A DNA stretch of 10,461 bases from a virus (Duplodnaviria; Heunggongvirae; Uroviricota; Caudoviricetes). The position numbers and the translations under genes are program-made. This document shows positions 1-10,461 of the stretch, one piece after another (position 1 is the stretch's first letter; each line of letters begins with the position of its first letter). The notes below the pieces were generated by a model. That model did not search any database and had not been told where the DNA came from. It was given only the letters and a program-made list of their open reading frames with translations. The stretch lies in the IMG/VR virus record IMGVR_UViG_2526164651_000009. One strand, given 5' to 3'.

Positions 1-453
1 TTAGCAAAAATTAGCATCCTCCCCACCAGCCACCCGGTATACCTCTGATAAATCACGAACATTTTTCATGTCTGCTTTCCCGGACGTTTCCATCAGTGCG
101 TTAATATCATCCCCCGTATAGCGTGATTGCGCGACGATACCAGCCAGAGAGATAACCATAGCCCGGCATACCTGGTCTATCAGACGTAACCTGGTGTCAT
201 CATTCGAGAGGGTGTAAGACTTAACCTCAGCCACATTCCGTGGATAGTTGGCGTGCCATACCGCGACAGCTCCACATTCATCAACATCGCCGCTAAGGTA
301 GGTTTTTGCCACTCGGTTATTACCCGATAACGCAATTTCTACCTCCTGTATGCCGAAAAACCATGCGGCTATCGCATGACCTGCTTCATGTATTGCAAGA
401 TGTCTGGGCCAGCGATAGCTGCCGAACTCAATAATGATGGGGTGCGTACTCAT
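1..453 (-). CDS. Small putative zinc metallopeptidase-like protein (HEAGH motif), about 150 aa; function unknown
   Basis: ORF 1..531 on the minus strand with TAA at 1-3. Preferred start is the ATG at 453-451, preceded by GAGAGGGAAG and lying 10 nt downstream of the ssb stop; the track start at 531 would overlap ssb by 68 nt. The protein contains HEAGHAIAAWFFG, an HExxH zincin-type motif resembling the FtsH/M41 signature. Family assignment is by motif only. Confidence 0.5.
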   Translation of the reverse strand: MSTHPIIIEFGSYRWPRHLAIHEAGHAIAAWFFGIQEVEIALSGNNRVAKTYLSGDVDECGAVAVWHANYPRNVAEVKSYTLSNDDTRLRLIDQVCRAMVISLAGIVAQSRYTGDDINALMETSGKADMKNVRDLSEVYRVAGGEDANFC

Positions 454-463
454 ATCTTCCCTC

Positions 464-898
464 TCAGAATGGCGTTTCATCGTCGAATGGTGGGCGTTGG
501 TCGTATTCATCACGGGATGGCTGCTGCGCACGTCTCAGCGCGTCCGTTGCCTGTCCCTGCTGTCCTGCCTTCCCGCCGGGGCGTACCGTTCTGGCGCTGA
601 TCACACTGTCTGCAATCACCTGATACCCGGTCTGTATGCCACCGTCCTGCCCTGTCCACTGGTTAACCTGCATATTGCCCGCCACGCTAACAAGGTCGCC
701 TTTCTGGTGCTTCGCCAGCGCATCGGCCTGCTTCCCAAAAGCAATAACGCCCAGCCAGAAGGTTGACTCTCCCGCCTCTGCCGCATTACAGGGGAGCGAC
801 ACCGCCAGCCGCGCCATAGCCATGTTGTTACCGTTCGTTGTGGTGCGGGTCTGGGGATCTGCCACCAGCCGCCCGTATGCTGAAATTTGTGCTGTCAT
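464..898 (-). CDS. ssb: Single-stranded DNA-binding protein (SSB), 144 aa
   Basis: ATG at 898-896 preceded by GAGGGG about 6 nt upstream. OB-fold-like N-terminal region (FWLGVIAFGKQADALAKHQKGDLVSVAGNMQVNQWTGQDGG), a Gly/Gln-rich linker and the acidic C-terminal tail PPFDDETPF, which matches the conserved SSB tail (DDDIPF in E. coli SSB). Confidence 0.85.
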   Translation of the reverse strand: MTAQISAYGRLVADPQTRTTTNGNNMAMARLAVSLPCNAAEAGESTFWLGVIAFGKQADALAKHQKGDLVSVAGNMQVNQWTGQDGGIQTGYQVIADSVISARTVRPGGKAGQQGQATDALRRAQQPSRDEYDQRPPFDDETPF

Positions 899-1271: not shown

Positions 1272-4031
1272 TTATTTTTCTGGCTGGCTGCTTTCCTCCG
1301 CCATGAAATTGAGTACATAGACGCGAATCTGTCGCCCATCCTCCCTTACTCGCCCCTGATAGCCTCGCCCGCTCGTTGGTGGTGTAAGCATTCCTGCATT
1401 CTTTAGAACTTCGGCAAACTGTTTGGTATTGAAGCCCTTTGCAATCTCCTGCTCAAACGCTGCCGGGAAGGTGTAGAAAATTATCGGGTCGCCGTCGTGG
1501 TTCCCCTTCTTCCTGTACCCGGCTAAATCACGGATGGGTAAATCGCGCGGGTCATAACCCAGCGGCGCGAATCGACTCAGCCCATAGGCATTCAAAAACG
1601 CCTCCGTCTGCTCAATAATCTGCTGGTGCTCTTTGTTCCCCGTGCCGAACTCACGCAACCACGCATTGTAGCTGTGCTGTATCGCATCACGGCACGTTTG
1701 ATCATCCCAGCCAGTAACCACGCCACCCAGCAGTAAAGCAGCCTCCAGAATGGCGAACCTTGCCCCTACACGGTGAACCTGTTCCCCATAGTCGGCAGGA
1801 ATAAGACTGCGCCAGCGAGCTTCACAGTCACGAACGGTATCAATGGCCTGCTGCTGGTGGCCTGCAAGCCATCTGATCCACTCCCGCCCGGCAGCGCCGT
1901 GATTGCTCTGCCACGCGGATTTTAATGCGTCTGCATGGTCTTTCCCTGTCTGGTGCTCATGAAAGCGCACCGCCTTACTTAACGGGATATTCAGCAGGCG
2001 CACCAGTTGCCCCGCTTTTGTCTTGCGTCCTGCGGTGGCAATGAACGTTTCTAAATCCATTTCCCCGGTGCTGATTGCCACGGTACGCCAGCGTTTTAGA
2101 TCCCGGTTTCCGCCTTCTTTCGCGCCCTGCAATTTCCCCACGCCGTTAAACAGGGCATAGGCAGACTGAGAAACGCTTATCGGGTCTGCGCCCTGTCCGA
2201 CTTCATCCAGCGGCATCAGTCCGTCATTGTGGGCGGCGGCCTCGTTTATCAGCCCCAGCGCCGTCCCGTACCACGTCAGGCGCAAGGCATCAGGGTTCCC
2301 GTATAGACTGCTAGCCACGTTCTGCGTGGTTGTTTTCCCGGCGCTCGATTGCTCATAAAAATGAATCCCGAATCCGTCACGCTCTGCCACCCCGATTAAT
2401 GGCGCTGCCAGTGCTGCGGCAATGCCTGTCATCATCGCGTAGTTGCCGTATGCCAGCCGCGCGACACTGTTGCGCCAGCTTTCCGGCGTTCCTGCTACGG
2501 TATACCCGGCAGCGGCTGAACTGCGCCCGCTGAACAAAACAGGCCGCTCAGGTGTGCCGATGATTTCCCCGTCCGGCATGATGTATGCCCCGCACTGCCA
2601 GCCTGTAGCATGAGCAACGCGCCACAATTCACGCGAGCCGCTCCGCTGTAGCCAGTCGGCAAGGATCGCCCGTAAACTGCTTTTGGTCGTGACGTTAACC
2701 CCACCAGCTTTCAGGGTGCGCCAGCCTTCACGCTCGCCAATATCAGCCAGCGGGATAGCCGCTGTTGTCGGTATGCCTGCACCGAATGCCAGCCATGAGA
2801 TAATAAGATACTGATCTTTGTCGTCGCGTCCCGTGCCGATAACCTCCAACGGGGAACATAACCAGCTTTCAGCGTTGACGATCTCCCCGCTTTCCTTGTC
2901 CACCTTCGGCGTTACCCAGAAAACGCCATCTTTGCGGCTCTCAATGTGGGGTTTTAGTGGATCTTTCTCTGGATGGTCAGTTTTACCGCCCTCAATGGCT
3001 TGCAATCGCGGTTTCACGGCTTCCCCTTGAATCTGGTACATCGAATCGTTAAACGCAGCCGTAGCGACTTCCAGCCCGTTTTGCTGGCGGTAGTCGTCCC
3101 AGTCGGCTTTGTAGTCTGTCGGCGGCAGCGCCACCCAGCCAGCCACGGATAAGGCGGCTTTCTCTGCGGCATCTTTGCCCGTGTTCGCCTGGTCGTCCTG
3201 CTGGTGGTCGTTATCTGCGGCAATGATAATTTGCGACTGCGGGTGTTTCCGGCGCATTACTCCGGCAACGTGGATCAGGTTCCCGGCGTCAATTGCCGCC
3301 ACTGTAAGCGCGTCCGGGCGCATCAGGTGGACTGATAAAGTGGTTGCCAGCCCCTCGGCAATAATCACCGCCTGCGGCTGTTCCGGTGCGTTAACGGCGT
3401 GATATGCCCCGCGCTTTGCTGAACCTGTCAGGAGTCGCTTCTCTCCCTGCGGTGTAATGGTTTGCGCTGCTGCCACTGCGCCGGATTCGTCCACCAGCTC
3501 CAGCAATAACGAACCATCCGGCATTACCGGATATTTAAACCCGGTCAGCCCTTTTGATTGCAGGTAATCAGATTCTCCCTGTGTGGCACTCTGGCGCATT
3601 CCGGCATACAGACGGGCAAACGTAGCCCTTCGCTGCTCTGCATCCTCTGCTGCCTGTTTCTGGCGCTCCTGCTCACGCTGCTGGCGGTCAGCTTCCAGTT
3701 GCTCTCTTCTATGGCTCGCTGCCACCGGGTCGGTTTCCGCTGCCCGGTAATCAATACCCAGCACGTCAGCGGCAAGCTGTGCCGCCTCCGTAGTGTCGCA
3801 GTTGTTAACCCGCTTGATTAAATCCAGCCCGTCACCAGCGCCACACTGGTTGCAGATAAAGCTACCGCGCCCGTTGTCGTCGAATCTGAAACGGTCTTTT
3901 CCACCACATGCAGGGCATGGAGAATGGCGGCGCGATGAATCAGGCACGTCGATAGACAATCCAGCCAGCACATAAGGCCAGCGCCCGGCGGCGGCACTGG
4001 TCACTTCGCGGATAAGGTCGATATTACGCAT
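1272..4031 (-). CDS. Primase-helicase replication protein (N-terminal zinc ribbon, TOPRIM domain, C-terminal P-loop NTPase), 919 aa
   Basis: ATG at 4031-4029 with AGGGGG about 6 nt upstream. Zinc-ribbon motif CPACGG...FICNQCG near the N-terminus; TOPRIM-like IIAEG and IIIAADNDHQQDD (DxD); Walker A-like EQSSAGKTT and Walker B-like LMPLDEVG in the C-terminal half. The start overlaps the stop of the upstream gene in the 8-nt sequence ATGCGTAA. Confidence 0.85.
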   Translation of the reverse strand: MRNIDLIREVTSAAAGRWPYVLAGLSIDVPDSSRRHSPCPACGGKDRFRFDDNGRGSFICNQCGAGDGLDLIKRVNNCDTTEAAQLAADVLGIDYRAAETDPVAASHRREQLEADRQQREQERQKQAAEDAEQRRATFARLYAGMRQSATQGESDYLQSKGLTGFKYPVMPDGSLLLELVDESGAVAAAQTITPQGEKRLLTGSAKRGAYHAVNAPEQPQAVIIAEGLATTLSVHLMRPDALTVAAIDAGNLIHVAGVMRRKHPQSQIIIAADNDHQQDDQANTGKDAAEKAALSVAGWVALPPTDYKADWDDYRQQNGLEVATAAFNDSMYQIQGEAVKPRLQAIEGGKTDHPEKDPLKPHIESRKDGVFWVTPKVDKESGEIVNAESWLCSPLEVIGTGRDDKDQYLIISWLAFGAGIPTTAAIPLADIGEREGWRTLKAGGVNVTTKSSLRAILADWLQRSGSRELWRVAHATGWQCGAYIMPDGEIIGTPERPVLFSGRSSAAAGYTVAGTPESWRNSVARLAYGNYAMMTGIAAALAAPLIGVAERDGFGIHFYEQSSAGKTTTQNVASSLYGNPDALRLTWYGTALGLINEAAAHNDGLMPLDEVGQGADPISVSQSAYALFNGVGKLQGAKEGGNRDLKRWRTVAISTGEMDLETFIATAGRKTKAGQLVRLLNIPLSKAVRFHEHQTGKDHADALKSAWQSNHGAAGREWIRWLAGHQQQAIDTVRDCEARWRSLIPADYGEQVHRVGARFAILEAALLLGGVVTGWDDQTCRDAIQHSYNAWLREFGTGNKEHQQIIEQTEAFLNAYGLSRFAPLGYDPRDLPIRDLAGYRKKGNHDGDPIIFYTFPAAFEQEIAKGFNTKQFAEVLKNAGMLTPPTSGRGYQGRVREDGRQIRVYVLNFMAEESSQPEK

Positions 4032-4365
4032 GGTTGCCCCCTGCCACGGTCGCGCCCATGTCTTTAACCATGCTTTGCCATATCTCGCGCCCGACGTCAG
4101 TCAATCCGTCCTTAGTGACGCAACGCTCAAGAAGCTCGACCCCCACGGTTTCCCACTGCGGGTAGGATACTTTCATGGCTGCCAGTGTGTAGCTATCGAT
4201 CAGGCTGCGAACGCCTTTTACTCCATTGACGATTTCCACACGGACGGCGAGGCCGTCCGCATCAACCATGAAATAGTCCCCGCCGCTGGTGGAGGTAATG
4301 TGGTTATACAGTGCCGATGCATACTTATTCGCCAGCGCATTCAGTCGGAAATTTTTAGTAATCAT
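4024..4365 (-). CDS. Hypothetical protein, 113 aa
   Basis: ATG at 4365-4363 preceded by GAGGGGG. The stop overlaps the primase start (ATGCGTAA). No recognisable motifs. Confidence 0.65.
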   Translation of the reverse strand: MITKNFRLNALANKYASALYNHITSTSGGDYFMVDADGLAVRVEIVNGVKGVRSLIDSYTLAAMKVSYPQWETVGVELLERCVTKDGLTDVGREIWQSMVKDMGATVAGGNHA

Positions 4366-4374
4366 GTCACCCCC

Positions 4375-5001
4375 TCAGTGCGCCAGCGGCATTTCAGGCC
4401 AGCCGTTTTCATCCAGTTCAGCTATAAAGCTGTTGTGAAGTTCAGCAAGCGTTTCACGCCCGAACGGGGTCAACTCGCCGCGCTCCGTGTCGATCATGGC
4501 CTGATAAAAAACAATGGCGTTCGCTGTTCCCTGCTCAATGCCGTAGCGCTCAACCATTGCGCCCTCCATGTTGTTAGCCATCGCCAGACGTTCCGCGAAC
4601 GGGTAAACCACAATCCCCGCCGTGCCATTGGAGTAAATCGCCACCTGCGATGAAGTGTCGTCAGACTCAGTTACCGTGGTTGTGCCGTTTTCGCGCTTCA
4701 TCTCAGAAATGAACGTCGCAGCAATCAGCCAGCGCCACATAGTGACGTTATGCTGCGCGGTGAAGTCGAACCAGCCACGCGCCCCGTCATCAGCAACGGC
4801 AAAATGAATGGCGTATCCGATATCTGGCTTATCGTCGTACTCTCCGGCGTCAAGGCCGTTCACGGCGCTCTCGTAGCTGATAAGAGCAACCTGCTCATAT
4901 CCCCCGGCATCATTGCGGGTCATGATATTGACGCCGTGCGGTGTGGCTTCGGCGTGTAATAAGTCGGCATTTCCCGATTTAATGGTCGGTGCGTTGCTCA
5001 T
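4375..5001 (-). CDS. Hypothetical protein, 208 aa
   Basis: ATG at 5001-4999 preceded by GGAGGG about 7 nt upstream. The start overlaps the stop of the upstream gene in ATGA. No recognisable motifs. Confidence 0.7.
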   Translation of the reverse strand: MSNAPTIKSGNADLLHAEATPHGVNIMTRNDAGGYEQVALISYESAVNGLDAGEYDDKPDIGYAIHFAVADDGARGWFDFTAQHNVTMWRWLIAATFISEMKRENGTTTVTESDDTSSQVAIYSNGTAGIVVYPFAERLAMANNMEGAMVERYGIEQGTANAIVFYQAMIDTERGELTPFGRETLAELHNSFIAELDENGWPEMPLAH

Positions 5002-5261
5002 GCGCTGCCCTCCGCATCAATTCTGGCTATATCGACAATCATCAGGACTTTACTCAGCCAGCAATACGCGATGGCTGCTTGCTCAACTTCGAGGAGTGGT
5101 AATAAATCGGTCATAACGTGAGCCAGCCCATTGCGGGCGCGGGTCATGCGTTCTGCTGTTCGGTCTGCCAGCGTAAAATCATCCGGGCATGCTTCTTTAC
5201 GAGATAGCATCGATTCGGCTTCCAGATCTGCCGGGTGGCGATAGATGGTATTTATGTTCAT
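4998..5261 (-). CDS. Hypothetical protein, 87 aa
   Basis: ATG at 5261-5259 preceded by AGGGAGGG. ATGA overlap with the upstream gene stop and again with the downstream gene start. Confidence 0.6.
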   Translation of the reverse strand: MNINTIYRHPADLEAESMLSRKEACPDDFTLADRTAERMTRARNGLAHVMTDLLPLLEVEQAAIAYCWLSKVLMIVDIARIDAEGSA

Positions 5262-5572
5262 TTGCCCGCCCTCCCTTTGGCTTCTTTTTCACTGATTGAG
5301 CGCAAGAATGCGGCGTTTGCAGCGCTATCGTTCAGCGCCCGCGCAACTTCTCCGATATGTCCCAGCATTGCGCCTAATCTGTACATATCAGCCTTAGCGC
5401 TTTCCTCCGGGTAGCCATCGCTACCAGCCGCCCAGAACATGAGGCTACCAATGGCACTTACGCCCAGCATTAAATCATCCACGGCATCACTGGCGCGGCT
5501 CTCAATTCCGTTCAGATCATCAGGTGTACAACCATCAAATTTGCAGGACACTAAATCGTCATACATGCTCAT
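5258..5572 (-). CDS. Hypothetical acidic protein, 104 aa
   Basis: ATG at 5572-5570 preceded by GAGGTGG. ATGA overlaps at both ends. Confidence 0.6.
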   Translation of the reverse strand: MSMYDDLVSCKFDGCTPDDLNGIESRASDAVDDLMLGVSAIGSLMFWAAGSDGYPEESAKADMYRLGAMLGHIGEVARALNDSAANAAFLRSISEKEAKGRAGK

Positions 5573-5748
5573 GCCGCCACCTCACGAACGCGGGTAATCT
5601 GGATGTGGGAAAGGCGTTCATTTCTGGCCTGATTTAGCGCCTCAGCTTTGGCGCTGATCGCGCTGCGGGCGTCAACGATATAAACGAACTCGACTAATTC
5701 GCCGCTCTGGGCGGTGGCGCATCCTGCAACACGGAAGTAATTAAGCAT
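5569..5748 (-). CDS. Hypothetical small protein, 59 aa
   Basis: Preferred start is the ATG at 5748-5746 with AGGGGG about 6 nt upstream; the track start at 5778 is a TTG and would overlap the Icd-like gene by 38 nt. The start overlaps the Icd-like stop in ATGCTTAA. Confidence 0.5.
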   Translation of the reverse strand: MLNYFRVAGCATAQSGELVEFVYIVDARSAISAKAEALNQARNERLSHIQITRVREVAA

Positions 5749-5932
5749 GTGCGCCCCCTGTGCGAATACGTCCGGCAAAAAAGCAAACGTGATCCCGCGC
5801 CAGAATGCGGCGGGCTTCCTGCTCAGTCTCTGCGGCGATATGGTGAATTTTGGCGGTAATTGTCGGCATATCGCGGCGAACTGCTGCGATAATCCAGATA
5901 AATTGCGGTTTTTGGGTAGGGGTAGTAGCCAT
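5741..5932 (-). CDS. Icd-like small protein (host cell-division inhibitor Icd family, tentative), 63 aa
   Basis: C-terminal 63 codons of track ORF 5741..6493. ATG at 5932-5930 is preceded by a strong SD, AAGGAGG, 8 nt upstream; the longer ORF has no such signal and contains a terminator-like hairpin. The family name is from recalled resemblance to Icd-like proteins of P4-like prophages, not from a search. Confidence 0.6.
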   Translation of the reverse strand: MATTPTQKPQFIWIIAAVRRDMPTITAKIHHIAAETEQEARRILARDHVCFFAGRIRTGGAHA

Positions 5933-5940
5933 TATGGCAG

Positions 5941-6035
5941 CCTCCTTTGTGTTTAAGGAGTCACCGCCTGACGTCTCAATGTCATGATTGGCGGTGACGT
6001 CAGCGGGGTTGAGACTACCGGACACAAAGGAAACC
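5941..6035 (-). ncRNA. Candidate C4-type antisense RNA or structured regulatory leader upstream of the Icd-like gene
   Basis: A perfect 10-nt inverted repeat: 6022-6031 (ACACAAAGGA on plus) is the reverse complement of 5943-5952 (TCCTTTGTGT), and the latter covers most of the SD of the Icd-like gene. Between them is a 9-bp stem (5960-5968 GTCACCGCC with 5990-5998 GGCGGTGAC). A local 6-bp hairpin (5942-5947 with 5955-5960) also includes the SD. Exact RNA ends cannot be determined from sequence. Confidence 0.3.
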
Positions 6036-6121
6036 GGCCTATCCGAAGATAGCCCCACTGACGCCACCATAGATACAGTACGGGCAAGGCCGCTGATTTG
6101 ATGTGCGTGGTGATCGGACAC

Positions 6122-6144
6122 AAAAAAAGACGCTTTCGGCGTCT
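6122..6144 (-). terminator. Candidate rho-independent terminator for the upstream alpA-side operon
   Basis: On the minus strand: stem AGACGC, loop CGAAA, stem GCGUCU, followed by six U (plus-strand A-run at 6122-6127). The stem is short (6 bp) but GC-rich. Confidence 0.35.
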
Positions 6145-6282
6145 GTGTCGCCCTTAGTGTGTTCGGGGTCTCAATCCCGGTTGCTGATTTTGCAGCAACG
6201 CTTGGACTATAACAGCTTTTCTCTGCTAGGTGGTCATACCAGATAAAACCGTAACCCTTTAAGAGTTTTCCCTGTGCACGGC

Positions 6283-6435
6283 TCACCATCTTTTTGTTGA
6301 GGGTAAGCGCCTCGCGTACTGGTAACGGAACTCCGGGCGCTGCGGTATCAATATCAGGTTTTGTAAGGTTGCAGATGTCAACTTTTGACAACATGCCAGC
6401 CAGATTAAAGGCTTCTTTCTGGGCGGCAGGTTCAT
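6283..6435 (-). CDS. Possible small basic ORF, 50 aa (MNLPPRKKPLIWLACCQK...), uncertain
   Basis: ATG at 6435-6433 overlaps the TGA of the upstream DUF4222-like gene (ATGA coupling); TGA at 6285-6283. No independent SD and the composition is unusual. Not in the supplied track because it is under 60 aa. Confidence 0.15.
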   Translation of the reverse strand: MNLPPRKKPLIWLACCQKLTSATLQNLILIPQRPEFRYQYARRLPSTKRW

Positions 6436-6614
6436 TCAGTATCACGGCGCACCTCCACGAACTCATTAACGAATCTCTCCAAAGGCTGAACACATGGCGA
6501 CTGATAGCCCTCGCGGTAAAAGGTCACTCGGTTATGCTCGACGCGCTGTACGGTCACTACAGCCCCGTGACTGTCCTTGTAACGGCTTCCCGGCATCGGA
6601 TTATGGTTACGCAT
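6432..6614 (-). CDS. Small protein, DUF4222-like (tentative), 60 aa
   Basis: ATG at 6614-6612 with GGAGG about 7 nt upstream. The start overlaps the upstream stop in ATGCGTAA. The sequence pattern (GAVVTVQRV...VTFYREGYQSPCVQPLERF) resembles small DUF4222 proteins of P4-like prophages, from recall only. Confidence 0.55.
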   Translation of the reverse strand: MRNHNPMPGSRYKDSHGAVVTVQRVEHNRVTFYREGYQSPCVQPLERFVNEFVEVRRDTE

Positions 6615-7440
6615 GGTTTACCTCCAGACGCTTAGCGAGCCAGCGTTGCGACAGGCGGGTGAGTTCTCCTTTGCGCTGCTCATATTCCATGCCCATATCA
6701 ATTAACGTGATATTGGTGCTTTCGAGATAGGCGAGGTGTTCAAGCTGTGCTGCGTTCATGCTGTCCCGTGGTTCGCCAGTAATGCCATTTGCCTGCGCCC
6801 ACTGCTTCGCCGTCATGCCACCCAGCACGATACGGGCGATCATGTTGCTCTCGTTGCTGTAGTGGCGCTGCTGCGTCGTTTTACCCAGCTCGGCACGGGC
6901 CATATTCAGCGCATCGCACATTGGCTTAAAATTGTTTGCGGCACTGATACGGGCTTTTAGCTGGCGACGATAGCGGGCGGCGATTTCAGGCACGCTACGC
7001 TGTAATTCTTCCTCGCACTGGATGAAATAACGGCGGATAGCGCGGCCCTGTTCGGTGCGTTCGACCATCGCCAGTTCTTTCGCCATTCCGACACTTAACA
7101 GATAGTCTTTGCCGGGTCTGCCAGACTGTTTAATCTTGCTGTAAGCCACGCCATTCGGGCTTTTCCCCAGATTTGGGGAAATTGTTTTATGGACTGAGTA
7201 ATCGTGCCCAATGGTGAAGTCATATTCAGAGATGCGATCAGTGATCCATGTAGAGAAGTCTTTTCCCACGCCCAACGCTTTGTGTAACGCTTTGGCGCTA
7301 ACAATATTGGTTTCACGCCCACCGATATGACCAGGAATAACCGGGACAATTGTGGCAAATTCATTACCGTTAATTGTGCCCTGATAGGCGTTCAGATGAG
7401 GGGCGGCCTCAGAAATTAATCTGCTTTTTTCGATGTTCAT
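6607..7440 (-). CDS. Phage antirepressor-like regulatory protein (AntA-type N-terminal domain, tentative), 277 aa
   Basis: ATG at 7440-7438 with GGAG about 8 nt upstream. N-terminal region SAKALHKALGVGKDFSTWITDRI resembles the AntA/ORF6N-type antirepressor signature (F-S/N-D/T-W-I..RI). The C-terminal half is unassigned. Confidence 0.5.
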   Translation of the reverse strand: MNIEKSRLISEAAPHLNAYQGTINGNEFATIVPVIPGHIGGRETNIVSAKALHKALGVGKDFSTWITDRISEYDFTIGHDYSVHKTISPNLGKSPNGVAYSKIKQSGRPGKDYLLSVGMAKELAMVERTEQGRAIRRYFIQCEEELQRSVPEIAARYRRQLKARISAANNFKPMCDALNMARAELGKTTQQRHYSNESNMIARIVLGGMTAKQWAQANGITGEPRDSMNAAQLEHLAYLESTNITLIDMGMEYEQRKGELTRLSQRWLAKRLEVNHA

Positions 7441-9046: not shown

Positions 9047-9141
9047 AACGCCACCTTTTACGCTGCGCCTTATTTTGTGATTGAGCCAGGCGGTAAGGCT
9101 TCCCGCTTTTCGCCCCGTCGGGCTAGACTCAATCTATTCAG

Positions 9142-10401
9142 TTAGTTCGCCCTTCTGAGAGGCGTCACGTTGTAATCTTCGCCCTTCTCCAGAGCCACCA
9201 GCAAGCCCGCCCACTGTGTTAACGCAGCCCGTCGCTCGTCAAAGTATTGGTGACGGTTATAAATCCCCTCTACGCCCTTAATGCGATGATTGAGGCATCG
9301 TTCCGCCACTACCGGATCAACGCCCAGCGCTGCTAAATGGGTGCGGGCCGTGCGTCGGAAGTCGTGAATCGTGAAATTAGGCACATCCGGTATTTCGGCG
9401 CGAACCTTAGCCAGTGCTACGGGCAGGGTGCTTTCCTGAATATGGGGGATCATGCGGTTTTGCATCTTTCTGGCTGGCAGTACCCATGCGCTGTTGCATG
9501 AGAACGTTTTAAGCTCTCTCAGCCATTCGACGGCTGGGGAAGGTAGAGGTATATCAATAGGGTCTCCGTTTTTGCTGCGTTCTTCCGGCAAATGCCATAC
9601 CGCACCATCTAAATCAAACTCTTCCCATCGTGCGGCGCATAATTCCATTTTGCGGACGCATAACGCTAACAGTAATTTGAACGTGATTTCGTTCTGGCGA
9701 CTGAATCCCTTAGCCGTGCGCATGGCTTTGAATAGCTGGATTAACTCATCGCGGGTTAACCAGCGGTCACGGGCAACTTCTTTCCCTCCGGCGTCTGCCA
9801 CCTCAAAGGCTGAACAGGGGTTAATCTCTAGCGCGTGCCGTTTGATTCCGTAGTCGAATATGCGGCGCGTCCATCTCAGCACGTCCGTTGCTATGGTCGA
9901 CGCTCCACGGTCAACAATACCTTTCAGCATGTCATCGATATGGCGCGGTTTCACGTCCTCTACCTTCATGCTGCCAATGCAGGGGTTTATATCTTTGTCG
10001 ATACGGCGGCGGAGTATATCGGGGTGCTTCCAGCGCGGGAGGATCTGACGCTCAAAGTATTCAGCGGCAAGCTCTGAAACGCGCATAGCGTTCTTCTCTG
10101 CTTCCATCTTCGCCAGTGCTTCGGTTTTGCGCTTCTGCTTCTCTCCTGCAACGTCATAGCCCAGCGCAACGCGAGCCGATAGCTCTTTGGCTGTCTCTCT
10201 GGCCTTTGATAGTGATAGCTCGCTATACGAACCAATTAGCATGGCGCGGGACTTCCCTGCGAGTTTATAGCGGAATCTCCATGTGGGGGTTTTGTCGGCT
10301 TCACGGTAACGTAGGTATAAACCGTTACCGTCTGCCCGCCCCTCGAATCGCTCTCCGCTCTTAATCCATGCGCGGATCTGCATGTCTGTTAGTTTTGGCA
10401 T
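9142..10401 (-). CDS. int: P4-type tyrosine integrase (site-specific recombinase), about 419 aa
   Basis: Preferred start is the ATG at 10401-10399 (MPKLTDMQIRA..., matching the usual P4-type integrase N-terminus); the ORF remains open to the window edge at 10461. The C-terminal catalytic region carries HDFRRT and the active-site tyrosine context GIYNRHQY. Confidence 0.9.
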   Translation of the reverse strand: MPKLTDMQIRAWIKSGERFEGRADGNGLYLRYREADKTPTWRFRYKLAGKSRAMLIGSYSELSLSKARETAKELSARVALGYDVAGEKQKRKTEALAKMEAEKNAMRVSELAAEYFERQILPRWKHPDILRRRIDKDINPCIGSMKVEDVKPRHIDDMLKGIVDRGASTIATDVLRWTRRIFDYGIKRHALEINPCSAFEVADAGGKEVARDRWLTRDELIQLFKAMRTAKGFSRQNEITFKLLLALCVRKMELCAARWEEFDLDGAVWHLPEERSKNGDPIDIPLPSPAVEWLRELKTFSCNSAWVLPARKMQNRMIPHIQESTLPVALAKVRAEIPDVPNFTIHDFRRTARTHLAALGVDPVVAERCLNHRIKGVEGIYNRHQYFDERRAALTQWAGLLVALEKGEDYNVTPLRRAN

Positions 10402-10461
10402 TTTGCGAATATCCAAACTTTGAATAGGGGGTGTACCCAAAGCAATGTACCCAAACCTCAT

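Follow-up and report, generated by a model that had tools for sequence, protein, structure and literature searches.

The DNA analyzed here, a 10,461-nucleotide (nt) stretch from IMG/VR record IMGVR_UViG_2526164651_000009 (hereafter the window), carries a phage satellite which, judged by its gene content and order, is a phage-inducible chromosomal island (PICI) of the EcCIMP1 type. Between its Icd-like gene and its primase-helicase gene lie five small open reading frames (ORFs), named here by their lengths in amino acids (aa) as orf59, orf104, orf87, orf208 and orf113. Our principal finding is that the C-terminal domain of orf208 is, by profile comparison, homologous to ORF106 of P4, which we take to be the replication regulator Cnr. 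We propose that the five ORFs belong to a P4-type replication operon in which orf208 and orf113 would act as Cnr-like modulators of the island's own initiator, a reading for which we judge the case to be evenly balanced.

Cnr binds the P4 alpha initiator and restrains replication. The cnr gene is reportedly ORF106, and Cnr is said both to bind alpha and to stimulate the binding of alpha to the iterons; alpha mutations conferring resistance to Cnr are likewise said to map to the DNA-binding C-terminus of alpha. Located between epsilon and alpha, cnr controls the plasmid copy number of P4, and its family is present in 90% of P4-like elements (PMC8628076). Transposon insertions that suppress the toxic phenotype of the ECOR15 P4 prophage fall in the Icd-like gene, in a 106-aa gene at the cnr position and in the primase gene (bioRxiv 10.1101/2023.04.06.535777).

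The orf208 gene (4375-5001, minus strand, ATG start) encodes a 208-aa protein with a confident predicted structure of two domains: an N-terminal extension (residues 1 to about 80) and, from about 83 to 208, a C-terminal domain of the Cnr/DUF5375 kind into which a beta-hairpin of about 22 residues is inserted. Using a diverse orf208 profile gathered by a search of representative sequences (70 sequences, effective number Neff 6.5), hhalign matched ORF106 with 94.5% probability and an E-value of 7.8e-8 over 92 columns. The alignment pairs residues 83-194 of orf208 with residues 8-101 of the 106 in ORF106, covering most of the length of ORF106 and bypassing the beta-hairpin, which ORF106 does not have. 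The score of 45.5 compares with at most 17.1 for 16 unrelated small proteins and at most 18.8 for 200 shuffled versions of ORF106. P4 ORF106 is itself a member of DUF5375 (PF17345) and of phrog_5991, and phrog_5991 matches residues 140-196 of orf208 (E 1.3e-3) in the same register as the hhalign alignment. Some members of the orf208 family carry faint precomputed PF17345 marks; orf208 alone matches no Pfam family even at E<=10, and direct blastp of the ORFs against P4 epsilon, orf151 and ORF106 gave nothing significant. Cnr is a single-domain protein of about 106 aa and orf208 is longer; stand-alone relatives of its C-terminal domain, of 126-135 aa, exist. The family is small, with 154 clusters at 50% identity among 1.84 billion proteins, and its public product name, '2-polyprenylphenol hydroxylase related flavodoxin oxidoreductase', is unsupported by family searches. 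Of the possible roles that the sequence-only reading had suggested for the block, the homology to ORF106 favors that of replication accessory for orf208.

The position of orf208 points the same way. We scanned the orf208 alignment against one genome per species and obtained 20 loci, 13 of which are islands of the same build from about 10 enterobacterial genera, and we tabulated the interval from Icd to primase in 16 islands. In all 16, orf208 is followed by the primase, directly or by way of orf113, and in the window no terminator lies between them; the orf208 family was the search bait, hence its presence in 16/16.

The neighbor, orf113 (4024-4365, minus strand, 113 aa, ATG start), is predicted with confidence to be a small helical protein. 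In CP033893.1, a complete 5.7-Mb chromosome, a single 336-aa ORF of a related island is orf208-like over its first 214 residues and 37% identical to orf113 over its last 116. The point of fusion corresponds to the TGA and three codons of the window, and the fused gene overlaps the primase start by 8 nt. In the window the two genes are separated by a 9-nt gap (junction 4363-4377) and share a reading frame, with the TGA and three codons between them; judged by eye from tblastn coordinates, the two genes are also in frame with each other in seven of nine related islands, and the L031 genome has a sense codon where the orf208 stop would be. Taken together, this is good evidence that orf208 and orf113 would work together.

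The two proteins may also be related by descent. The models of the orf208 C-terminal domain and of orf113 share an order of elements, namely a long helix, a hairpin, two helices, a short L-T-x-x-G-R-E hairpin and a final helix, and neither the orf208 nor the orf113 model found a relative among solved or viral predicted structures. Profile-profile comparison gave an E-value of 4.5e-4, with one of 100 column shuffles reaching the native score, and hhalign with secondary structure gave P = 0.045. The 123-aa ORF of EcCIMP1 aligns over its full length to the orf113 family (score 29.2 vs at most 19.4 in 100 shuffles). We lean, with some reserve, towards orf113 being a paralogue of the orf208 C-terminal domain.

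The five ORFs are packed as expected of such an operon. Ahead of orf208 and orf113, in order of transcription, lie orf59 (5569-5748, 59 aa), orf104 (5258-5572, 104 aa) and orf87 (4998-5261, 87 aa), all with ATG starts on the minus strand. The ORF listing and a junction script bear out the sequence-only reading's account of five ORFs of these lengths, each with a Shine-Dalgarno (SD) sequence: G-rich runs of this kind stand 6-9 nt before each ATG (GGGGG, GAGGTGG, GGGAGGG, GGAGGG and GAGGGGG from orf59 to orf113). The junction between the Icd-like gene and orf59 is an 8-nt overlap, ATGA overlaps of 4 nt join orf59 to orf104, orf104 to orf87 and orf87 to orf208, and orf113 overlaps the primase by 8 nt, so that the block runs straight into the primase-helicase as had been claimed. 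Overlaps of 4 or 8 nt, the layout of translational coupling, thus hold at five of six junctions; the chain of overlaps described earlier breaks at orf208/orf113, where there is the 9-nt gap, and its strand is corrected to minus. A scan of the minus strand within 4024-5748 found no promoter-like or terminator-like sites, and the block is presumably a tightly packed, translationally coupled operon, as the sequence-only reading had proposed.

Four further E. coli copies, 95-99% identical in their DNA, likewise keep all five frames open. Among these near-identical copies the nonsynonymous-to-synonymous ratio (pN/pS) is 0.28-0.40 for orf59, orf87, orf208 and orf113; for orf104 it is 1.9, from very few substitutions. 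Public genomes hold exact copies of all five proteins, whose 90%-identity clusters have 50-882 members, and the window matches Shigella flexneri K-227 identically at the protein level. Because the frames are intact, pN/pS is low in four of them and exact copies occur in public genomes, the ORFs are beyond chance and, on this comparative evidence, are genuine genes, with coding support weakest for orf104.

Searches of Pfam, NCBIfam and PADLOC assigned no family to any of the five ORFs, with no PADLOC match below E 0.03; their matches among PHROGs were only to families of unknown function, and sequence and profile searches of the PDB with all five ORFs and the orf87 family gave no match. Homology of all five to housekeeping phage proteins, which would have spoken against an uncharacterized module, was accordingly not found in Pfam, NCBIfam, PADLOC or PDB, and the description of the proteins as uncharacterized stands for curated families and gives way for orf208 to its relationship with ORF106. 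Membrane proteins were also considered and ruled out, as no 19-residue segment reaches the usual hydropathy threshold.

The gene that follows the block, and ends the series as its last large cistron, encodes a 919-aa primase-helicase (1272-4031, minus strand; Pfam Zn_Ribbon_Prim, Toprim_3 and DUF927). Between its stop and the start of the SSB gene, at 984-1250, lies a cluster of 11 copies of the iteron TGTTGTCTC in both orientations, together with an AT-rich stretch. All 11 matches in the window fall inside this interval; 1.8 are expected across the window, and none of 200 shuffles reached 11. The same cluster is found 3' of primases 89-93% identical to this one at four other loci (L008, L012, L013 and L018). 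As in P4, in which crr follows alpha, the iterons come after the primase gene, and we regard the cluster as a candidate replication origin of the ori/crr type.

A complete relative of the island, in E. coli XJ5.2 (L001), separates the block from this origin. The two share a single block of 97% identity (window 2982-5931, L001 10959-13908) that takes in the Icd-like gene, the five ORFs and primase residues 1-351. Over these residues, which hold the Zn-ribbon and Toprim domains, the primase is 94% identical to that of XJ5.2. Beyond residue 351 the XJ5.2 primase is P4-alpha-like (the protein is 38.5% identical to alpha over 812 aa), and it is followed by different repeats, seven copies of GTAGGGATA. 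Because the C-terminus and the repeats of XJ5.2 both differ, the helicase/origin-recognition part and the iterons are exchanged together, while the five ORFs stay behind.

Upstream, the operon begins with the Icd-like gene (5741-5932, minus strand, 63 aa), its first cistron, which has AAGGAGG before its ATG, matches NF033153 phage_ICD_like at E 1e-20 and encodes a protein 41% identical to the C-terminus of the P4 'cI' ORF. The leader before it carries, on the minus strand, a C4 antisense RNA (5987-6074; Rfam RF01695, 82.1 bits, gathering score 45), isrK (6123-6199; RF01394, 71.1 bits, gathering 50) with a terminator found by scan at 6144-6128, and c4-a1b1 target sites (6160-6212; RF03163, 52.8 bits, gathering 46.7). 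A C4-family RNA and its target repeats are therefore present in the operon leader upstream of icd. By analogy with the biology of P1 and P4, the leader at 5987-6212 would be an immunity element of the P1 immI/P4 cI type set over the downstream operon. The antisense-controlled leader that had been suspected is thus borne out by three RNA elements above their Rfam gathering scores, and the control would follow from their kinship.

Some public annotations at this locus deserve comment. RefSeq 'Icd-like' and 'ash family' proteins of 300-355 aa cross the isrK and C4 RNA genes (L001 13718-14629; L003 10597-11664), and a 250-aa ORF with a GTG start (window 5741-6493) likewise spans the leader RNAs. 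Such long calls are probably over-extended, because the 63-aa ORF has its own AAGGAGG.

From the gene structure, conservation, synteny, RNAs, models, ORF106 homology, fusion and iterons described here, we infer a scheme in which coupling, RNA control, primase binding and protein activities would fit together as follows. The five ORFs would be early genes of a replication (lytic-cycle) operon laid out on the plan of the P4 left operon. In the integrated state the C4-type RNA would keep the operon silent. On induction it would be transcribed as one unit, the translation of each gene probably being coupled to that of the preceding one, and because orf208 and orf113 share a message with the primase, they would be produced in step with it. 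orf208, with orf113 as its probable physical partner, would bind the island primase-helicase and so adjust how often the origin fires and how many copies are made; the origin itself would be the iteron cluster at 984-1250. The remaining proteins, from orf59, orf104 and orf87, would most likely act on helper-phage or host proteins in derepression, takeover or toxicity.

The distribution of the genes also divides the block. Some part of it occurs in 370 of 5,426 complete E. coli genomes and at least 80% of it in only 35, the commonest piece being orf113 with the 3' third of orf208. Across the 16 tabulated islands the orf87 family is present in 14 and the orf113 family in 11; orf104 is found in two and orf59 in one or two, and other cassettes of 64-123 aa in three to six each. 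Synonymous divergence among near-identical islands is 0.20 in orf87, 0.11 in orf113 and 0.006-0.03 elsewhere, and because it is so uneven across the block, gene-by-gene exchange is indicated. By these comparisons the block is a mosaic, in which orf87 and orf113 recur with orf208, and orf59 and orf104 are rare, exchangeable cassettes. The distribution refutes the earlier picture of the five genes as one module, and its description as a satellite module likewise fails for orf208 and orf113, which have homologues in the early-left operons of temperate phages.

The 90%-identity cluster of orf59, which has a pN/pS of 0.31 and no PHROG match, has 114 members in Escherichia, Shigella, Klebsiella and Enterobacter; the gene occurs in one of the 13 related islands from other genera. 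The orf104 protein is acidic (isoelectric point 4.5) and matches two PHROGs of unknown function, phrog_6805 (E 1.2e-12) and phrog_15327 (E 1.2e-9). It is missing from the 13 related islands, and its 90% cluster has 81 members on hundreds of contigs. orf87, also acidic, is 60% identical to the 87-aa ORF of EcCIMP1; its family has no PHROG or PDB match, and its high synonymous divergence (pS 0.20, pN/pS 0.40) points to allele exchange. By its occurrence, orf87 is an orphan core gene of the island family. A tblastn search of 50,697 phage records with orf59, orf104 and orf87 gave no match, and because they lack phage homologues the three appear to be satellite-specific. By position alone they would fill the slot of epsilon and orf151 in P4. 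Public names for two of them, 'ubiquinol-cytochrome C reductase' (orf104, RefSeq) and 'nicotinic acetylcholine receptor subunit beta' (orf87), are unsupported by family searches, and the odd product names in this block look like propagated annotation errors. A false UvrB name on EcCIMP1_002 has been pointed out by Pick et al. (PMC11773190).

Homologues of orf208 also occur in 36 phage records, among them phiP27, about 20 Shiga-toxin (Stx) phages, eight Klebsiella phages, phi467 and EKP1. In the temperate enterobacterial phages among them (phiP27 L06, phi467, Stx1 and Stx2 phages and the prophage-derived Klebsiella phages) the homologues of orf208 (29-37% identity) and of orf113 (about 60%) are early proteins of unknown function. 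Unlike in the island, these homologues are not adjacent to a primase, several of the phages use replication of the O/DnaC/DnaB type, and orf59, orf104 and orf87 are lacking. An orf208 homologue occurs together with a P4-type Zn-ribbon primase in phi467 and in eight Klebsiella phages, the latter near-identical, so that few independent lineages are represented. Homologues of orf113 occur in phi467 and EKP1, where an ORF6N/KilAC gene stands between the orf208 and orf113 homologues. A separate observation in phiP27 (L027 9499-9777) is a region similar to the P4 'cI'/ash ORF beside two Ant genes. In P4 that region contains the C4-type RNA; phages with orf208 homologues may, by this resemblance, also use C4-type immunity.

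Several of these observations, with others, weigh against a Cnr-like role for orf208 and orf113. The link to ORF106 reached significance only with the diverse alignment: hhalign from a shallow alignment of orf208 gave a probability of only 5.7%, and no Pfam family, DUF5375 included, matched any of 57 family members at E<=0.01. The orf208 homologues of phiP27 and of about 20 Stx phages lie in early-left operons, the replication modules of phiP27 and Stx2_112808 are of the O/DnaC/DnaB type, and the regions examined in phiP27 and the Stx phages yielded no P4-type primase. The orf208 family is therefore not tied to P4-type primases, and the notion that orf208 always travels with one is ruled out by phiP27 and Stx2_112808. 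The paralogy of orf113 and orf208 is statistically only suggestive, and some islands with primases 90-93% identical to that of the window do without orf113, which is therefore dispensable for primase function. Finally, two different helicase/origin-recognition C-termini, with different iterons, go with one and the same five-gene module (97-99% DNA identity), and this speaks against specific contact between its products and the DNA-binding C-terminus of the primase.

Some of the same facts would suit cargo for host takeover or counter-defense, in which the small proteins, orf208 and orf113 included, are general early accessory factors that bind proteins of the host or of competitors, for example nucleases, defense systems or parts of the replisome, and lie near the primase only for shared timing. 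On such a view the placing of the phiP27 and Stx homologues in early-left operons with no P4-type primase nearby, the occurrence of orf113 homologues beside ORF6N/KilAC genes in the same kind of operon, and the pairing of an identical module with different helicase/origin domains would all be natural, as would the mosaic distribution, the exchange of cassettes and the character of the proteins, which are small, mostly acidic and free of enzymatic motifs and membrane segments. However, orf208 is homologous to ORF106, taken as a replication regulator, and stands directly before the primase, alone or with orf113, in 16/16 islands; the orf208::orf113 fusion overlaps the primase start, phi467 and the eight Klebsiella phages combine the orf208 homologue with a P4-type Zn-ribbon primase, and neither a PADLOC match nor any known anti-defense family was found among the matches. 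We regard takeover cargo as a serious if doubtful explanation.

The operon could instead be a device for cell death or superinfection exclusion, with the Icd-like protein as effector and the small ORFs needed to sense an incoming phage or to relay its trigger; derepression would then stop the cell. The ECOR61 prophage locus (Silas et al., bioRxiv 10.1101/2023.04.06.535777) arrests growth when a phage accessory gene (orf24) is expressed; suppressor transposons fall in its Icd-like gene and two small ORFs, and six linked genes are needed to rebuild the effect. Compared by layout only, it resembles the window in having an Icd-like gene, an 8-nt overlap, ORFs of about 61 and 63 aa and a primase further on, and differs in having six genes vs seven in the window, the Icd-like gene and primase counted. 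The ECOR61 effect, however, is attributed mainly to the Icd-like protein, and its ORFs are likened to orf59, orf104 and orf87 by layout alone. Toxicity on derepression is moreover expected of any P4-type left operon and is not necessarily its purpose, and there is no PADLOC match. We think a device of this sort unlikely.

Still less probable, in our estimation, is the derepression of a helper prophage, whereby at least one of orf59, orf104 and orf87 is the equivalent of epsilon and inactivates the helper repressor, cassette exchange tracking helper specificity. The three ORFs occupy the epsilon position, directly after the Icd-like gene and with the same 8-nt overlap, they are similar in size and acidity, they are without phage homologues, and the turnover of orf59 and orf104 with the allelic divergence of orf87 would fit an arms-race interface. 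They resemble neither epsilon, however, nor the Derepression and Ash families of Pfam, the island already has an AntA/AntB antirepressor upstream, and EcCIMP1 left the induction and titers of Kapi1 unchanged (PMC11773190). That some of the ORFs are non-functional, open by chance or in recent decay, is hardly credible even for orf104, for although its pN/pS of 1.9, narrow distribution and missing phage tblastn match point that way, it is intact in five of five copies, has an SD sequence, ATGA junctions on both sides, two PHROG matches and an 81-member cluster, and the other four ORFs have pN/pS of 0.28-0.40.

The Cnr-like reading of orf208 and orf113 can also be carried further. As a speculation to which we attach little likelihood, they may represent a Cnr-like superfamily that extends beyond P4, a two-part and sometimes fused governor of replication initiators. 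Satellites would apply it to the primase-helicase that they encode themselves. In phages without such a primase (phiP27 and many Stx phages), which have it in their early operons, it would be turned on the initiators of others, for example resident satellites or rivals. The satellites would counter with matching specificity or sensor proteins, namely orf87 and the variable cassettes orf59 and orf104, in the manner of the ECOR61 locus. If true, replication control would be a weapon traded between helpers and satellites.

Islands of the EcCIMP1 type occur commonly in E. coli, Shigella, Klebsiella and their relatives, and their genes from Icd to primase are publicly annotated as hypothetical or with nonsense names. 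What is new here is the placing of orf208 in a widened Cnr/DUF5375 family, the partnership of orf208 with orf113 and its natural fusion, the split between core genes and cassettes, and the independent swapping of helicase and origin. A very small family is thereby extended to proteins of Shiga-toxin phages, which could bear on mutual replication interference between helpers and satellites, and EcCIMP1 with phage Kapi1 offers a tractable laboratory system for testing it.

The minus strand encodes every gene of the window. From high coordinates downward they are the integrase, an int-alpA RNA, DUF6387, AlpA, orf144, the AntA/AntB antirepressor and DUF4222, continuing with isrK, the c4 targets and the C4 RNA, the Icd-like gene, the five ORFs, the primase-helicase, the iterons and SSB. 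The integrase is P4-type (9142-10461, cut by the window end), and the int-alpA RNA (9067-9133; Rfam RF02996, 59.5 bits vs gathering 35.8) lies between it and the DUF6387 gene, both on the minus strand; the window stops short of the island's far attachment site. At the other end, 3' of SSB, a 176-aa ORF (1-531, minus strand) overlaps the 3' end of SSB by 68 nt. It has an HEAGH (HExxH) motif and a weak Peptidase_M50B-like match (E 0.008), it is 91% conserved in L007, and by this motif it may encode a small metalloprotease.

The assignment of the element to the PICIs is based on its genes and on its closest known relative. Pfam identifies an integrase, Phage_AlpA, AntA, DUF4222 and Zn_Ribbon_Prim/Toprim_3/DUF927 in one orientation, and the 13 islands from about 10 genera share the order int-AlpA-orf144-AntA-(DUF4222)-Icd-[small ORFs]-orf208-(orf113)-primase-(SSB). 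Identity to the locus of E. coli NC101 is 91% for AntA, 79% for orf144, 70% for DUF4222, 60% for orf87, 63% for orf208, 95% for orf113 and 79% for the primase. We identify the NC101 locus as EcCIMP1 because its RefSeq protein accessions are those of EcCIMP1 in strain MP1 of E. coli. The possibility that the NC101 locus, which contains ejection-protein genes, is a full podovirus prophage was considered and ruled out, since the locus is EcCIMP1 itself. The XJ5.2 relative, an island of about 12 kb between yicC and a duplicated dinD, has no structural or lysis genes, and together with the homology and synteny of seven genes with EcCIMP1 this upholds the identification of the element as a satellite. 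EcCIMP1 is an E. coli PICI mobilized by the temperate podophage Kapi1 (Pick, Stadel & Raivio 2025, PMC11773190); the need of a helper phage for excision, replication and packaging was demonstrated for EcCIMP1 itself (PMC11773190), and no gene between Ash/Icd and the primase of EcCIMP1 is characterized there.

Two side observations concern related islands. In XJ5.2 (L001) the dinD genes at 5018-5842 and 6193-7017 flank the island, which suggests that it brings its own dinD or that integration duplicated dinD. A contig labeled Chryseobacterium sp. 18061 (L007) carries an island of the enterobacterial family at about 80-90% protein identity, and Elizabethkingia phage EKP1 (L026) has its orf208 and orf113 homologues among neighbors of enterobacterial type; these labels could reflect mislabeling, contamination or an unexpected host range.

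Compared with EcCIMP1, the window has the same order from AlpA to primase and homologous proteins at 60-95% identity for seven consecutive genes, and the pRiA4b ORF-3 and 61-aa proteins of EcCIMP1 are also found at the distal end of the XJ5.2 relative. The differences are those of site, size and cargo. The XJ5.2 relative sits at yicC/dinD and measures about 12 kb, whereas EcCIMP1 sits at tRNA-Thr and measures 20 kb; the relative has an SSB gene and lacks DUF2824 and the ejection-protein genes. In the window, orf59 and orf104 replace the 64-aa and 73-aa ORFs of EcCIMP1, and the 123-aa ORF that precedes the primase of EcCIMP1 is absent. The leader resembles P1 immI (c4 RNA-icd-ant) and Gifsy-1 isrK in having a C4 RNA, its a1/b1 targets and isrK directly before the Icd-like ORF. 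Unlike in P1, AntA lies upstream of the RNA, and icd is followed by a replication operon and not by ant.

The window departs from the P4-like satellites as defined by Moura de Sousa & Rocha (PMC8628076), which combine psu, delta and sid with alpA, int, epsilon and alpha. Neither the window nor the complete relative has sid, delta or psu, the Ash/epsilon family of Pfam gave no match, and the P4-like components of the window are limited to int, AlpA and a primase domain at the N-terminus that resembles that of alpha. The likeness is in the left operon, which in P4 runs from the Icd-like 'cI' ORF through epsilon, orf151, ORF106 and alpha to crr with the same 8-nt overlaps as the window. In both, the leader contains a C4-family RNA, small ORFs follow an Icd-like one, a Cnr-type protein is encoded close to the initiator and iterons lie just 3' of the initiator gene, and the N-terminal 331 aa of the window primase are 34% identical to P4 alpha. 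In contrast, the small ORFs of the window are unlike epsilon and orf151, its helicase part is DUF927-type and not P4-type, and its orf208 is twice the length of Cnr, with an N-terminal extension, a beta-hairpin insertion and a probable paralogue in orf113. The finding is thus not a new system; it is a variation on the known P4-type design within a recently described satellite family.

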